Shown here: positions 1,174 to 7,066 of the stretch, in pieces
Layout: each line of letters begins with the position of its first letter
Numbering within the stretch: position 1 is the stretch's first letter
Virus record (IMG/VR): IMGVR_UViG_2778261346_000012
DNA: 10,598 nt
Source of the DNA: a virus
Lineage: Duplodnaviria > Heunggongvirae > Uroviricota > Caudoviricetes
Reading direction: 5' to 3' (one strand)
The notes under the pieces: generated by a model
Database searches by the model: none
What the model was told of the DNA's origin: nothing
What the model saw: only the letters and a program-made list of their open reading frames with translations
Position numbers and translations under genes: made by a program

Positions 1174-3045
1174 ATGACTTATTTTACTAACACAGCAGTA
1201 AATATCGAAGGAAACAGAAAGTTAAGAACTCCTCAAATCGAGGCCTATATAAAAATAAGGGAGTTTTTCAGCGACCCTGAGCACCGTGAAGCTCTTGTGA
1301 TTCTACCTACAGGCACAGGTAAAAGTGGGTTAATTTCTATTGCACCATACGGTGTATCTCAAAAAAGAGTTTTGATTATTACACCAGGTCTTGTTACCAA
1401 AGATAGTATTAGAAAGACACAAGAAGTATTAGAAGATAACTTTTGGATAAATTATGACATTGTCTTCAGCAGTAAAGATATTCCTGTAGTTAGTGAATAT
1501 ACACCAGATATATCTTCTGAACACTTAGAACAAAGCCACATTATATTTTCTAATATACAACGTATATCTGGAAATAGAAAAAGCGCACTAATTAATAGAG
1601 TTCCAGAAGATTTCTTTGATTTTATTATCGTTGATGAAGCACATCATGCACCAGCCCAAAGCTGGCGTGATGCTCTTAAATATTTCTCTAAAGCAAAAGT
1701 TTTACATGTCACAGGAACCCCTTATCGTGGTGATGCTCAAGAAATCCCGGGAGAAATAATTCATGAAACACCATTGTCAGAAGTGATGAGAGCAAAATAT
1801 GTAAAATGGTTAAGAAAAGAAACTGTTAATGCTCATGAGTTGTACTTCACAACTCCAGATATACCTAACAAAAAACTAACTAAAGAAGATATTTTAGAAT
1901 TTAAAGATAAAGAATGGATTGAAAAAAGCATTGCCCTATCTCCGGAGTGTTCAAATGATGTGATTGAGCATAGTATTTTAAAACTAAATATACTTAAAGA
2001 AGCATCACCTAAAGTCCCACATAAAATTCTCGCTGTAGGATGTAGCATTACTCATGCCGAAGATCTAGCTAAATGGTATGAAGCAAAAGGTCTACGTGTA
2101 GTTATAATTCATAGTGAAATGGATGATGAAGTAAAAGCAGACGCTTTCCTTAACATTGAAAATCATAACGCCGATGTTGTTATATCGGTAAATATGTTAA
2201 TGGAGGGCTATGACCATAAGTATTTAAGCATTTTGGCAATCTTCAGACCTTACAGGAGCCTTAATGCATTTGCTCAAGTTGTTGGCAGAATTCTACGTGC
2301 GATTCCTGAAAACGAGATTACTGCATTTGAAATAGATAATAATGGAATTGTGATTTTTCATGAAGAAATTGGATTAAATCCAATGTGGGAAAAATTCCAG
2401 AGCGAAGTAGATAGAGCCAAAAGAACCATCAATCGAGAATATACATTTACTGATGATTATTATAGAGAAAGAGAAAACTTTTTGGCTGGTGTCGCAAGTG
2501 ATGGGGCTTACGTCAGTGATCAAGATTCTTATTTAGAAGATGTTGATTTTAACTCTTTATTCGAAGAAAAAAGAGCTGAAATAAACAAAAAAGTTGATGA
2601 ACAATTAGAAATATTCAGGAAGGCAAGTCTTGATGCAGGATTAACGTTACCTGATGACACTCTGAAATTGTTTAAAAGAGACTTAATTGAACAAGAATCT
2701 AGGAAAGCTGCTGGAGAAATAGATCAAGATCTAGTAGAAAAAAGGCCGCATCTTGCTCGTAAAAAAATGAGAGAGATCTTAACCGCTAAGATTAAAGAAG
2801 AGGCTTCTAACCTTCTGATAATAAATGGCCTCGATGAGAAAGGACAAGAACTGCAACCTATTTTTTCACCACATCTTAGGAATCTACAGACAACCGATGC
2901 AAATGATGCTATTATTGTAAAATTCATTTTGGGTAAATTGTATAGACAGTTTGGTCCTGTAAAAGATCGAGACAACCAAACTTTACAGAACTCAATTAAT
3001 TCAATACCTGAGATCTTAGCTGAAGTGTCGAGGATGTTAAAATGA
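1174..3045 (+). CDS. SF2 DEAD/DEAH-box (ResIII-like) helicase-family protein with ~240-aa C-terminal extension of unknown function; candidate defence protein
   Basis: 623-aa ORF. AGGAG RBS at 1164-1168, ATG at 1174, 9 bp after the int stop. Helicase motifs in order: PTGTGKSG (Walker A / motif I), IIVDEAHH (DEAH, motif II), VTGTP (motif III), SVNMLMEGYD (motif V-like), QVVGRILR (motif VI). C-terminal third is charged and low-complexity with no nuclease or other motif I recognise. AT-rich codon usage unlike the satellite core. Confidence 0.9.
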   Translation: MTYFTNTAVNIEGNRKLRTPQIEAYIKIREFFSDPEHREALVILPTGTGKSGLISIAPYGVSQKRVLIITPGLVTKDSIRKTQEVLEDNFWINYDIVFSSKDIPVVSEYTPDISSEHLEQSHIIFSNIQRISGNRKSALINRVPEDFFDFIIVDEAHHAPAQSWRDALKYFSKAKVLHVTGTPYRGDAQEIPGEIIHETPLSEVMRAKYVKWLRKETVNAHELYFTTPDIPNKKLTKEDILEFKDKEWIEKSIALSPECSNDVIEHSILKLNILKEASPKVPHKILAVGCSITHAEDLAKWYEAKGLRVVIIHSEMDDEVKADAFLNIENHNADVVISVNMLMEGYDHKYLSILAIFRPYRSLNAFAQVVGRILRAIPENEITAFEIDNNGIVIFHEEIGLNPMWEKFQSEVDRAKRTINREYTFTDDYYRERENFLAGVASDGAYVSDQDSYLEDVDFNSLFEEKRAEINKKVDEQLEIFRKASLDAGLTLPDDTLKLFKRDLIEQESRKAAGEIDQDLVEKRPHLARKKMREILTAKIKEEASNLLIINGLDEKGQELQPIFSPHLRNLQTTDANDAIIVKFILGKLYRQFGPVKDRDNQTLQNSINSIPEILAEVSRMLK

Positions 3046-3464
3046 TTAATGTAGCTCAAATTTTGAAAAATTTAGCTGCCTTTTGTTCAGTCAAGGGAGT
3101 TCAACCTGATGAACTTGTGACCGCTATATTTGAAAAAGAATATAAAAAAATTGAAACATACAAGGTCAATTGTCTTATTTATTTCATCATGGATTACTCC
3201 GAAAAAATTGATGATGATGAAACATTTATTTCTATGCGTTATATTTATGACGAGAATAAATCACTTATAAAAATAGAACAAAAGCTAAACAATGGACGTT
3301 ATCATACCCAGTGGGACAGAAATGACGCACTGAAGAAATATATAATAAATCAACTTTCTGAACTTCCATATCAGAAAAGAGACGAGGTCTATCAGACAAT
3401 TTTAGAAAATATACCTATTGATGCAAGTTACTCCTTACCTCCAAGGCTAAAGCTTGTTAGCTAA
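3042..3464 (+). CDS. Hypothetical 140-aa protein, translationally coupled partner of the helicase
   Basis: ATG at 3042 overlaps the helicase TGA stop (ATGA, 3042-3045). GAGGA RBS at 3030-3034. Same AT-rich composition. Followed directly by an intrinsic terminator. No motif recognised by eye. Confidence 0.75.
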   Translation: MINVAQILKNLAAFCSVKGVQPDELVTAIFEKEYKKIETYKVNCLIYFIMDYSEKIDDDETFISMRYIYDENKSLIKIEQKLNNGRYHTQWDRNDALKKYIINQLSELPYQKRDEVYQTILENIPIDASYSLPPRLKLVS

Positions 3465-3479
3465 GTTATAATTTCACTG

Positions 3480-3504
3480 AAGGCACCATTTGGTGCCTTT
3501 TTTT
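3480..3504 (+). terminator. Rho-independent terminator of the int-helicase-partner operon
   Basis: Stem AAGGCACC (3480-3487), loop ATTT, stem GGTGCCTT (3492-3499), merging into a 7-T run (3498-3504). Lies 16 bp after the 3464 stop. Confidence 0.75.
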
Positions 3505-3591
3505 CAATGCAAATATATCCAAACTCAATGTAATCTATAAAAACCGTTTTACCTCCACATTATGAATAATATAAATATACACTGGCGCGCA

Positions 3592-3610
3592 GTGCTTTCC
3601 CCGCCTCGCC
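3592..3610 (-). other. cos: cos site: 19-nt P2/P4 cohesive-end sequence
   Basis: Plus strand reads GTGCTTTCCCCGCCTCGCC, the reverse complement of GGCGAGGCGGGGAAAGCAC, which I recall as the P2/P4 cohesive end. The extended reverse complement GGCGAGGCGGGGAAAGCACTGCGCGC matches my memory of the P2 genome left end. Sits between the cargo and psu, as in P4. Confidence 0.8.
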
Positions 3611-3713
3611 CGCCCGCTTTGCAGGGCGGTTTTAATGCAGTTGCACAGTCACGCTCAGGCTGCGCCGGGAATGGCGCGGTCTGCAGAAAATGAGGCAGGA
3701 AAACGCATGCAAA

Positions 3714-3774: not shown

Positions 3775-4347
3775 TTACACAGACTGACGTGATGCCAGTT
3801 GCGCACTTTTACGCGAAAAAATCATGTTCTGCGCAGGGGTGAATTTTTCACGGCTGTCATCCACAGAAGCCGCGTCAGGCCTGAATCCGATAGTCGTTAA
3901 AATGTCGCTATCCTGTGCGGAATAATTAATTTTTTCACCCTTCGCAAGCCAGGACAGGAGGGCTTCACGCAGGGCATCTGTGGCACGCTGTATGGCACAG
4001 TTTCGGGCAATGACCGTCAGCTCACTGTAGCCCATCAGCTCCGGTGCCAGTGCCGCCGCCAGTGCTGTGCCGTGCTGCTGCATAAAATCATTCAGCCGGT
4101 CGCGGATGCTGATGTGCTGAACGGCTTCATGCGAACGAATATAACGACCGGCGGCCTGATTCACCTGCCATTTTCTGACTTCGATAATATTGCGTAATTC
4201 GTCCAGGCGGCTGACGTTTCTGCCTTCTCCTGACAGAAGCCGCAGATATTCCTGTTCGGCCGCTGCCAGCTCATTTTTGCGTTGCAGCCATGCTGCTTTG
4301 TTATTCTGACAGGTGTCAAAGGCCTGCTGTAAGGCTGTGCTTTCCAT
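3775..4347 (-). CDS. psu: Psu, polarity suppression protein (Rho antagonist / capsid decoration)
   Basis: 190-aa ORF, ATG start. Sequence MESTALQQAFDTCQNNKAAWLQRKNELAAAEQEYLRLL... matches my memory of P4 Psu in both sequence and length. Last gene of the sid-delta-psu operon, next to cos. Confidence 0.93.
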   Translation of the reverse strand: MESTALQQAFDTCQNNKAAWLQRKNELAAAEQEYLRLLSGEGRNVSRLDELRNIIEVRKWQVNQAAGRYIRSHEAVQHISIRDRLNDFMQQHGTALAAALAPELMGYSELTVIARNCAIQRATDALREALLSWLAKGEKINYSAQDSDILTTIGFRPDAASVDDSREKFTPAQNMIFSRKSAQLASRQSV

Positions 4348-6203: not shown

Positions 6204-6470
6204 ATGCAAGCTGTTTTTTCTTCCCCGTCTCCCGCCCCTGTGACGCCACTGATGCCGCTGCCGGACATCACGCAGGAGCGTTTTTTACGTCTGCCGGAAG
6301 TGATGCACCTGTGCGGCCTGTCACGCTCGACCATCTATGAACTCATCCGTAAGGGGGAATTTCCGCCGCAGGTGAGTCTTGGCGGTAAAAATGTGGCCTG
6401 GCTGCACTCTGAAGTCACCGCATGGATGGCCGGCCGCATTGCCGGACGCAAACGGGGGTATGACGCATGA
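6204..6470 (+). CDS. vis: Vis, AlpA-family helix-turn-helix regulator / excision factor (P4 orf88)
   Basis: 88-aa ORF, GAGG RBS 7 nt upstream of ATG 6204. AlpA-like core [30 protein letters not shown]. Stop overlaps the eta start (ATGA). Confidence 0.85.
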
Positions 6471-7066
6471 TGATGCCCGCTCTGCAAAAACTCCCTTTTT
6501 CTGGCTTGCCTTTTTCCGGCATTTGCGGATATAGTCTTTCCGTTGCCGCAAAATCGGCAGCCGGGCGTGAGAACCCGTGTAGCTCGAAGGCGACATATGA
6601 CGCGCCATGCGTCTTTTTTTGTGTCGCAATCAATGCCACAGAGCGCCAGATTATGGTGTGGTGTGTGGTCAGTCGTGCAGATGGCATTCCGTGCATCCTG
6701 CCTGCGTCCGCTCATTATGCCGCAGAGTCAATGGTAGCTCAGGCGGGGCAGCCTCCGGGCTGGCCGGTATTCTTCGAGGCCGGTATTCTCACCCCCGTCT
6801 GGGCTATCGCCATCGAGCGTGAGAACTCCGGCGATAGCAGTTATTTGCTACTCGAAGGAGGCTGCCTTATGGCTACAACCCTTACCCCCTCACACCCTGA
6901 ATTTGTCTTTGTGTTTGCGGCTGTCCGTCGCGCAGACCGTCATCCCCGTATCTGTATGCTTCGCACCGTCGCCGGTGATGAACGCAGTGCCCGCCGTTCC
7001 CTTGTCCGTGACTATGTGCTCTCCCTTGCTGCCCGTCTGCCGGTGGTGGAGGTGTCCCGTGCGTAA
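6467..7066 (+). CDS. eta: Eta (P4 orf199); reading frame spans PLE, the cI RNA region and the nested kil gene
   Basis: 199-codon ORF beginning with three consecutive ATGs (6467-6475). This fits my recollection of P4 eta as 197-199 aa with three candidate start codons. Whether the whole frame is translated is uncertain because an RNA gene and promoter lie inside it. Confidence 0.6.
6506..6535 (+). promoter_or_regulatory. PLE, candidate constitutive sigma70 early promoter
   Basis: -35 TTGCCT (6506-6511), 18-bp spacer, -10 TATAGT (6530-6535). Predicted TSS near 6542, just upstream of seqA. Confidence 0.5.
6565..6590 (+). promoter_or_regulatory. seqA-like immunity target in the PLE leader
   Basis: GCGTGAGAAC...CTCGAAGG. 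Both blocks are complementary to the seqB core inside the predicted CI RNA (CTTCGAG...TTCTCAC at 6772-6792) and recur at 6817-6858. Confidence 0.5.
6737..6804 (+). ncRNA. cI: CI immunity RNA (P4 cI / C4-type antisense RNA), boundaries approximate
   Basis: A 12-bp closing stem (GCTCAGGCGGGG 6737-6748 pairs with CCCCGTCTGGGC 6793-6804, including 2 G-U pairs) encloses about 44 nt that contain the seqB-like segment complementary to the upstream and downstream targets. About 68 nt, close to the ~69-nt size I recall for P4 CI RNA. Lies between PLE and kil as in P4. Confidence 0.5.
6817..6858 (+). promoter_or_regulatory. seqC-like immunity target overlapping the kil translation initiation region
   Basis: GCGTGAGAAC (6817-6826) and CTCGAAGG (6851-6858) repeat the seqA blocks. 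The second block overlaps the kil RBS AAGGAGG (6855-6861). Confidence 0.5.
6869..7066 (+). CDS. kil: Kil, 65-aa protein nested in-frame in the 3' end of eta
   Basis: In-frame ATG at 6869 with an AAGGAGG RBS 7 nt upstream gives exactly 65 codons to the shared TAA stop. Matches my recollection of P4 kil as a 65-aa product and the first translated gene downstream of PLE. Confidence 0.6.

Follow-up and report, generated by a model that had tools for sequence, protein, structure and literature searches.

The stretch of DNA analysed here, hereafter the window, comprises the 10,598 nucleotides of the IMG/VR virus record IMGVR_UViG_2778261346_000012 and carries a P4-like satellite of Escherichia coli. 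The subject of this work is a two-gene cassette (positions 1174-3464) located between the integrase gene int and the cos site, which encodes a superfamily 2 (SF2) helicase with a DEAH motif and a partner protein of 140 amino acids (aa). The cassette is very probably a two-gene anti-phage system of the Crouga family, which occupies the int-cos hotspot of the satellite as exchangeable cargo. In an initial annotation, made from the sequence alone, the pair had been regarded as an uncharacterised and novel system. This could not be upheld: one relative, pFD408 (93% identity for the helicase, 82% for the partner), had been tested in a 2026 preprint, and a second one, pFD421 (69% and 43%), had received the name Crouga in the same work (10.64898/2026.02.27.708500). 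The features of the locus are listed below, with the evidence for each in brackets.

1-1164, + strand: int, a P4-type tyrosine integrase, left edge of the cargo hotspot (open reading frame, ORF; annotated as tyrosine recombinase in 39 E. coli genomes)
1165-1173, + strand: int-helicase spacer of 9 bp with a GGAG ribosome-binding site, TAAGGAGAAAATATG (sequence)
1174-3045, + strand: SF2 DEAH helicase/translocase of 623 aa, Crouga-family motor subunit (ORF, Pfam, motifs, AlphaFold2 model, identity to the pFD408 and Crouga helicases)
1222-1236, + strand: Q-like motif LRTPQ of the helicase (sequence)
1306-1329, + strand: Walker A motif PTGTGKSG, containing Lys50 (G49 and K50 invariant in 45 homologues)
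1633-1644, + strand: motif II, DEAH, containing D154 and E155 (invariant among homologues)
1711-1722, + strand: TGTP motif (sequence)
2275-2298, + strand: motif VI, QVVGRILR (Q368, G371, R372 and R375 invariant among homologues)
2371-3042, + strand: C-terminal helical domain of the helicase, residues ~400-623 (model, conservation)
3042-3464, + strand: partner protein of 140 aa, Crouga-family small subunit (ORF)
3479-3507, + strand: intrinsic terminator that closes the operon (9-bp stem, 4-nt loop, T7 run)
3592-3610, - strand: P2/P4 cos core of 19 nt, GGCGAGGCGGGGAAAGCAC, right edge of the hotspot (exact match, 0 expected by chance)
8265 to the window end: alpha primase-helicase

The satellite displays the order int (1-1164), cassette, cos core (3592-3610) and psu (3775-4347, - strand), followed by delta, sid, the C4/isrK immunity RNAs and alpha. 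The int gene ends with TAA at 1162-1164, and GGAG and the helicase ATG (1174) come directly after it, so that the gap of 9 bp reported in the initial annotation was confirmed. The same holds for the 140-aa ORF overlapping the helicase gene by ATGA, which was located at 3042-3464 with the overlap at 3042-3045; the two genes are translationally coupled. The strong intrinsic terminator proposed downstream of the pair was also recovered, its hairpin (3479-3500) having a folding energy of -14.5 kcal/mol (z = -3.4), and none of 200 shuffled sequences folded as well. The cassette is probably either co-transcribed with int or read from a promoter in the int 3' end. The ratio of nonsynonymous to synonymous substitution rates (dN/dS), determined against a DNA relative of 87% identity, was 0.048 for the helicase and 0.163 for the partner; as judged from the sequence, both genes are intact, real and under purifying selection.

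The helicase was found to possess a full SF2 core, as had been proposed. Every motif could be located in the ORF at 1174-3045, all of them are invariant across homologues, and Pfam recognised the ResIII (E = 5.5e-23) and Helicase_C (E = 5e-8) domains. The AlphaFold2 model (predicted local distance difference test, pLDDT, 71) contains two RecA lobes, and the layout consists of RecA1 (residues ~1-185), an insert (186-283), RecA2 (284-400) and a helical, charged C-terminal domain (400-623). The protein begins right at the Q-like motif (residue 17), and thus it has no N-terminal nuclease domain. No match to HSDR_N, PD-(D/E)xK, HNH, GIY-YIG or PLD was obtained for the helicase at any threshold. The nearest solved folds of its core, as found with Foldseek, were XPB/Ssl2, RadD and RecQ-family proteins (E ~1e-10, 13-19% identity), and for XPB and RadD, the closest, the TM-scores were 0.3-0.4. 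The insert is conserved (dN/dS 0.025), yet it was poorly modelled. In the C-terminal domain, where 35% of the residues are charged, two long helices (459-487 and 494-550) and a conserved KRPxxAR motif were observed; the pLDDT was ~80 beyond residue 459, dN/dS was 0.073, and invariant residues reach as far as E617. This domain (~400-623) gave zero Pfam matches even at E <= 10, in agreement with its earlier description as a charged extension lacking a catalytic motif, and Pfam searches with the insert alone and with the C-terminal domain alone revealed no hidden domain.

The partner is an acidic protein (isoelectric point 5.5), predicted to fold into two helices, a five-stranded antiparallel sheet, two further helices and a disordered tail (residues 127-140). 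The model was confident (pLDDT 81, predicted template modelling score 0.70), and no solved structural relative of the fold was found. Across 108 diverse sequences only G19, Y67 and Y69 are invariant, while P22, Y34, W91, R93 and P125 are nearly so. These positions make up an aromatic/arginine patch, and no acidic, histidine or lysine residue is conserved. The patch looks like a binding surface rather than an active site, and the partner appears to be non-catalytic. None of PADLOC, Pfam, NCBIfam and PHROGs gave a match to the partner at or above the curated cut-off. Below threshold, the sole nuclease-family matches were R.HinP1I and DpnI, each in one of 55 family members, and DUF4595 was matched in 12 of the 55. 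An exhaustive search with hidden Markov models (HMM) yielded 161 clusters at 50% identity, in all of which the partner stands alone, with a length of 56-164 aa; informative domain fusions were sought among these representatives of its remote relatives and none was present. The initial annotation had assigned the effector role to the small protein or to the C-terminal domain of the helicase. No support was obtained for this assignment: conserved catalytic residues are missing from both, and neither has the fold of a known effector.

The functional evidence comes from two relatives of the pair. In the preprint, posted on bioRxiv on 19 March 2026, 19 P4-hotspot loci were synthesised and E. coli MG1655 was challenged with 28 phages (10.64898/2026.02.27.708500). 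One locus, pFD408, was labelled "REase::RM Type 1" (Syst.1; restriction endonuclease, restriction-modification), and the other, pFD421, was labelled "Syst.15_UnknownSys3" and named Crouga; they were listed as separate systems, and in Dataset E1 one entry has the status putative or partial and the other novel (10.64898/2026.02.27.708500). The pFD421 locus was a random pick from the "unknown" loci, its proteins being termed Unknown 3A/3B, of which 3A is the small one (10.64898/2026.02.27.708500). When compared with the window, pFD408 showed identities of 93.4% for the helicase and 82.1% for the partner, and of 86.7% at the DNA level over 2.8 kb. Its insert is collinear with the window from the int 3' end to beyond cos, and the terminator hairpin is also found 3' of the pFD408 insert sequence. 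For Crouga, the helicase was 69.2% identical (global alignment, 623 versus 619 aa) and the partner 42.7% identical over 140 aa. The Crouga and window helicases have the same Pfam domains and the small proteins belong to one HMM family. The Crouga insert also has the same order with the helicase first, the same ATGA junction and the same location in the P4 int-cos hotspot. By sequence comparison, pFD408 and Crouga are one family, and the window cassette is a new allele of it, closest to pFD408.

Plating ratios (system over control, two replicates each) were taken from File S4 of the preprint (10.64898/2026.02.27.708500). For pFD408 the values were 1.5e-4 and 1.2e-3 with T4, 2e-4 and 2e-3 with Bas35, 4e-3 and 0.029 with Bas63, 0.010 and 0.015 with AL505_P2, 0.0125 and 0.018 with Bas11, 0.03 and 0.016 with Bas13, and 0.05 and 0.044 with lambda (10.64898/2026.02.27.708500). 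The spectrum of pFD421 was the same and its effect weaker, with 1.5e-3 and 1.2e-2 for T4, 0.022 and 0.020 for Bas35, 0.023 and 0.1 for Bas63, and 0.05 and 0.012 for Bas11 (10.64898/2026.02.27.708500). The cloned relatives therefore lowered the plating of T4 and Bas35 ~50- to 6,500-fold, and that of several Drexlerviridae, lambda, Bas63 and P2-like phages ~3- to 250-fold. Protection was partial, and small plaques were seen on many phages. From these reductions, the part of the initial proposal that described an anti-phage module stands; as given above, its placing of the effector is not supported.

Two further statements on Crouga are found in the preprint. An AlphaFold3 interface score (ipTM) of 0.59 was given for the pair, which was suggested to be "RM-like", and in File S3 the small protein was ascribed to DUF6156 (PF19653) (10.64898/2026.02.27.708500). 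The latter assignment was not reproduced with the Pfam version employed here at E <= 10, being absent from the window partner, the Crouga partner and all 55 family members, and DUF6156 is taken as an unreliable annotation and not as a defining feature. In a literature search the name Crouga occurred in no other paper, and the RefSeq accessions and alternative names led only to that preprint.

In order to compare the pair with known systems, both proteins were scanned with PADLOC, Pfam, NCBIfam and PHROGs, and no named defence system was recognised. PADLOC returned only matches to the helicase core (type IV, type I and type III restriction enzymes, PbeA and DpdF), and PHROGs gave the generic phrog_16 "DNA helicase". 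The best sequence matches of the helicase in PADLOC, NCBIfam and the PDB were the type I restriction subunit HsdR and the type IV enzyme SauUSI (PDB 7clg). They share the ResIII-type SF2 motor, the DEAH motif and the Q-like LRxxQ motif, and the motor alone aligns. In contrast to them, the window helicase is half the size and has no nuclease domain and no methyltransferase or specificity partners. It also differs from RadD, as neither the RadD zinc finger nor a match to the RadD C-terminal domain is present. XPB pairs with the Bax1 nuclease, whereas the window partner is not Bax1 and has an unrelated fold and 140 aa.

Hachiman (HamA, with DUF1837, and HamB) is likewise a two-gene module of helicase and partner on mobile elements. 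In the window, PADLOC found neither HamA nor HamB and Pfam no DUF1837, the two genes stand in the opposite order, and the partner lacks nuclease residues. Gabija consists of GajA, an OLD-type ATPase/TOPRIM nuclease, and GajB, a UvrD-like helicase of superfamily 1 (SF1); no matches to GajA or GajB were obtained, and the window helicase is of the SF2 ResIII type. The view that the pair is neither Hachiman nor Gabija, nor any system known to the databases, was in this way borne out. A third two-gene helicase system, Helicase+DUF2290, also occurs in the P4 hotspot (Rousset et al. 2022, PMC9122126), and is made up of a UvrD-type SF1 helicase of ~710 aa and a DUF2290 protein of 245 aa (PMC9122126). 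No match to DUF2290 (PF10053) was detected in the pair. In Vibrio sp. D3 (locus L012, 7001-12320) a Crouga-family pair stands back to back with a genuine UvrD-like helicase + DUF2290 system, adjoining a VspR-like regulator, which shows that the two systems are distinct. One island is thus shared there by two different helicase-based systems. Finally, RqlH/RqlI, cited by Rousset et al., joins a RecQ helicase and a toxic phosphoribosyltransferase (PRTase) with a DprA-like RqlI, and neither domain is present in the window pair.

The distribution of the pair was examined in complete genomes. Of 5,426 complete E. coli genomes, 39 contain an identical copy of the cassette, those of O145:H28 outbreak strains among them, and RefSeq lists its products as "DEAD/DEAH box helicase" (WP_000220867.1) and "hypothetical protein" (WP_000611230.1). 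A 69% variant of the pair was found in 128 genomes, O157:H7 and O111 among them, so that both alleles searched at the DNA level together account for ~3% of complete E. coli genomes (39 + 128 of 5,426). The helicase has hundreds of full-length relatives of ~619 aa with 58-71% identity, in Yersinia, Proteus, Photorhabdus, Vibrio, Shewanella, Chromobacterium and Snodgrassella, and also in Myxococcus and Sorangium. For the partner, a single-sequence search gave 14 relatives and a profile search 110 clusters. The DNA 3' of two distant helicases contains overlapping ORFs of 141 or 145 aa, whose products share 42% and 35% identity with the window partner. A small ORF follows the helicase in 21 of 21 loci, in the same order and whichever protein served as query, and the stop/start overlap is conserved among loci. 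The partner diverges faster than the helicase (32-47% versus 58-69% identity). The pair is an obligate two-gene module, and no third gene was conserved beside it in the examined loci. On a Peribacillus plasmid, a helicase of 46% identity is overlapped by a 150-aa partner (hhalign probability 99.8%, E = 6e-28), and on Leptospira plasmids a helicase of 36% identity is followed by a 110-aa protein (hhalign probability 96%). The module reaches Bacillota and probably Leptospira (Spirochaetota). In the Leptospira interrogans plasmid pLiSL41 (locus L027, 2155-5229), a caspase-family protease gene was observed upstream of the helicase on the same strand. This protease could be an effector acquired by the Leptospira branch.

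The settings of the pair are diverse. In P4-like satellites it lies beside int, and in a Shewanella prophage it comes right after a cI-like S24 repressor. It was also located in a Proteus integrase island with Fic and CBASS, at the cargo end of a Chromobacterium Tn7-like element (TnsB, TniB, TniQ), in a Citrobacter island adjoining Wadjet and a type I HsdR, and on Pseudomonas megaplasmids. Whatever the phylum, mobile or defence islands always carry the pair as cargo. A housekeeping role would be favoured by conserved synteny on the chromosome away from mobile elements, but this was not seen, and no homologue was found in deposited phage genomes at E <= 1e-50. The earlier description of the int-cos interval as a variable hotspot was corroborated by a comparison with related satellites, in which unrelated cargo occupies this interval. 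When the int gene is 80-85% identical, the same slot holds a HEPN protein, a P-loop NTPase, a TrlF-family ATPase or the 69% variant of the pair. The int allele of the window (at least 99% identity) was encountered only in the 39 cassette-bearing genomes. Alignments to the 80-85% identical int genes end at query positions 956-1152, within the int 3' end, which suggests that the cargo-swap junctions are inside the end of int rather than after it.

How the system might act was then considered. Neither the helicase nor the partner contains a nuclease or other effector domain above threshold in Pfam, PADLOC, NCBIfam or PHROGs. The strongest targets were T4 and Bas35, and the DNA of T-even phages carries glucosylated hydroxymethylcytosine, which resists most nucleases. 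It is tentatively proposed that the helicase associates with the small protein, and that this complex would use its motor to act directly on replication or recombination intermediates of the phage or on the proteins bound to them. This is the most likely of the mechanisms considered, because the ATPase motor is complete, no effector is recognisable and two genes suffice in K-12, and it is still put forward as a possibility with less than even confidence. The ATP-driven, XPB/RadD-like motor would itself be the effector, and would translocate on phage intermediates, unwind them or strip proteins from them. Such a mode of action would account both for a defence that needs no nuclease and for the greatest effect being on phages with glucosyl-hydroxymethylcytosine. 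The small protein would be a regulatory or recognition subunit that gates or directs the motor, because it offers no candidate catalytic residues, just the aromatic/arginine patch and a flexible C-terminal tail. A more specific form of this proposal, which is somewhat doubtful, would be a nuclease-free immunity in which the partner acts as phage sensor and the gated motor blocks phages by ATP-driven remodelling alone, for instance of T-even D-loops or R-loops. If true, this would represent a defence without nuclease, NADase, membrane effector or any enzymatic effector beyond the ATPase motor, extending from Proteobacteria to Bacillota.

Several points weigh against these proposals. The phenotypes are those of the relatives only and were obtained with an induced pTet promoter, and the two replicates disagree for T7-like phages and some others. 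The role of the motor as effector is argued from the absence of an effector domain. The insert (186-283) and parts of RecA2 were modelled with low confidence and could contain a hidden activity. Complex formation, ATPase dependence and the requirement for the small gene are predictions of the proposal. In addition, the small plaques and the partial protection fit an abortive infection equally well.

Such an abortive, toxin-antitoxin-like action is rather unlikely, although it is the most probable of the alternatives. According to it, the helicase would be harmful to the cell (by uncontrolled unwinding, SOS induction or ATP drain) and restrained by the partner, until a phage cue removes or titrates the partner and the infected cell is arrested before phage release. 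The plaque phenotype, the translationally coupled operon and the faster evolution of the partner, both in identity and in dN/dS, are consistent with this. A precedent exists in RqlH/RqlI, a helicase with a small interacting partner that restrains it (PMC4670107). On the other hand, the toxicity of RqlH stems from its PRTase domain, which the window helicase does not have. The partner gene, moreover, lies downstream of the helicase gene, whereas the majority of type II toxin-antitoxin operons have the antitoxin gene in first place.

A second alternative, by analogy with XPB-Bax1 and with type I and type III restriction motors, is that the pair acts as sensor and motor and hands phage DNA to a nuclease. 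The latter could be a cryptic site in the insert or the C-terminal domain; alternatively, the partner tail could recruit a nuclease of the host. The best matches of the motor, type I HsdR and SauUSI, together with XPB, which works with the Bax1 nuclease, argue for this alternative, as does the fact that two cloned genes suffice in K-12, where a conserved host nuclease could take part. The conserved and poorly modelled insert could be one place for a cryptic site. This alternative is nevertheless quite improbable. No nuclease family matches the helicase, and the partner has only the sub-threshold matches to R.HinP1I and DpnI. The occurrence of the pair as far as Bacillota, and probably Spirochaetota, makes a shared host partner less likely. 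It would also be unusual for a nuclease-based restriction that glucosylated T4 DNA is the best target.

It was also evaluated whether the helicase might be an orphan restriction subunit of a type I RM system, either a remnant or one working with HsdM and HsdS from elsewhere. In the preprint the DefenseFinder model RM_Type_I_REases_FAM_2 matches the Crouga helicase, and the pFD408 helicase is labelled as an RM Type 1 REase (10.64898/2026.02.27.708500). The window helicase, in turn, matches the EcoAI R subunit in NCBIfam (E = 4.6e-16) and REase_I in PADLOC (1e-9). The EcoAI match, however, reaches 58 bits against a cut-off of 550 and covers just ~80 motor residues. HSDR_N is missing, and hsdM and hsdS are absent from the window and from the surroundings of the pair in most loci. 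The helicase has 623 aa, compared with ~1,040 aa for the real HsdR in locus L010, and is always paired with a specific small protein. Furthermore, T4, with its modified DNA resistant to type I enzymes, was among the phages against which protection was obtained in K-12. Membership in an orphan type I RM system is refuted, the probability left to it being minimal.

A function outside defence, as a satellite life-cycle factor (P4 replication, helper exploitation) or a RadD-type housekeeping repair helicase, is equally improbable and is contradicted by the data: the cassette does lie within a satellite, and RadD appears both in NCBIfam (E = 2.8e-15) and among the Foldseek matches, but the former match has 56 bits against a cut-off of 720, the pair occurs without P4 genes in a Tn7-like element, prophages, plasmids and islands of distant taxa, only ~3% of complete E. 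coli genomes carry it while related satellites swap in unrelated cargo, and an anti-phage phenotype was measured for relatives.

The anti-phage function and the name Crouga were already known from the preprint (10.64898/2026.02.27.708500). The unification of pFD408 and Crouga in one family is new, as is the finding that the type I restriction and DUF6156 labels fail. The same applies to the obligate pairing, which crosses phyla, and to the description of the partner as apparently non-catalytic and without solved structural relative. The family is widespread: the two alleles searched at the DNA level make up ~3% of complete E. coli genomes (O157:H7, O111 and O145:H28 lineages among them), and members also occur in many Gammaproteobacteria, on Pseudomonas megaplasmids, in Bacillota and probably in Leptospira. 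It gives strong protection against T-even phages, whose modified DNA escapes most restriction. No effector is recognisable in either protein, and an understanding of the mechanism could show how a helicase motor on its own halts a phage. From a practical point of view, the helicase is at present misassigned by DefenseFinder and PADLOC, which call it a partial restriction enzyme of type I or type IV. The partner merits a family model of its own, since no Pfam, NCBIfam or PHROG model covers it.

Some additional observations were made on the satellite. In the O145 strain RM9872 (locus L001, 8723-12065) it is inserted between mscS and argO; an IS3 insertion sequence (IS) element and two extra genes lie directly upstream of int, and no tRNA is annotated there. 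In other strains the same cassette is found ~50-80 kb from the record start, where related satellites sit at tRNA-Sec. The placement in RM9872 may be the result of an IS-mediated rearrangement or of a second attachment site. In the window, a second GC-rich hairpin, CCGCCCGCTTTGCAGGGCGG, is present at 3610-3629, followed by TTTTAA and abutting the cos core. It may terminate the converging psu operon or belong to the region in which cos is recognised. P4-type immunity RNAs were detected with Rfam, all above the gathering thresholds, namely the c4-a1b1 targets (6529-6581), isrK (6542-6619) and the C4 antisense RNA (6727-6814). They overlap an ORF at 6467-7066, which is annotated in RefSeq as an Icd-like protein.

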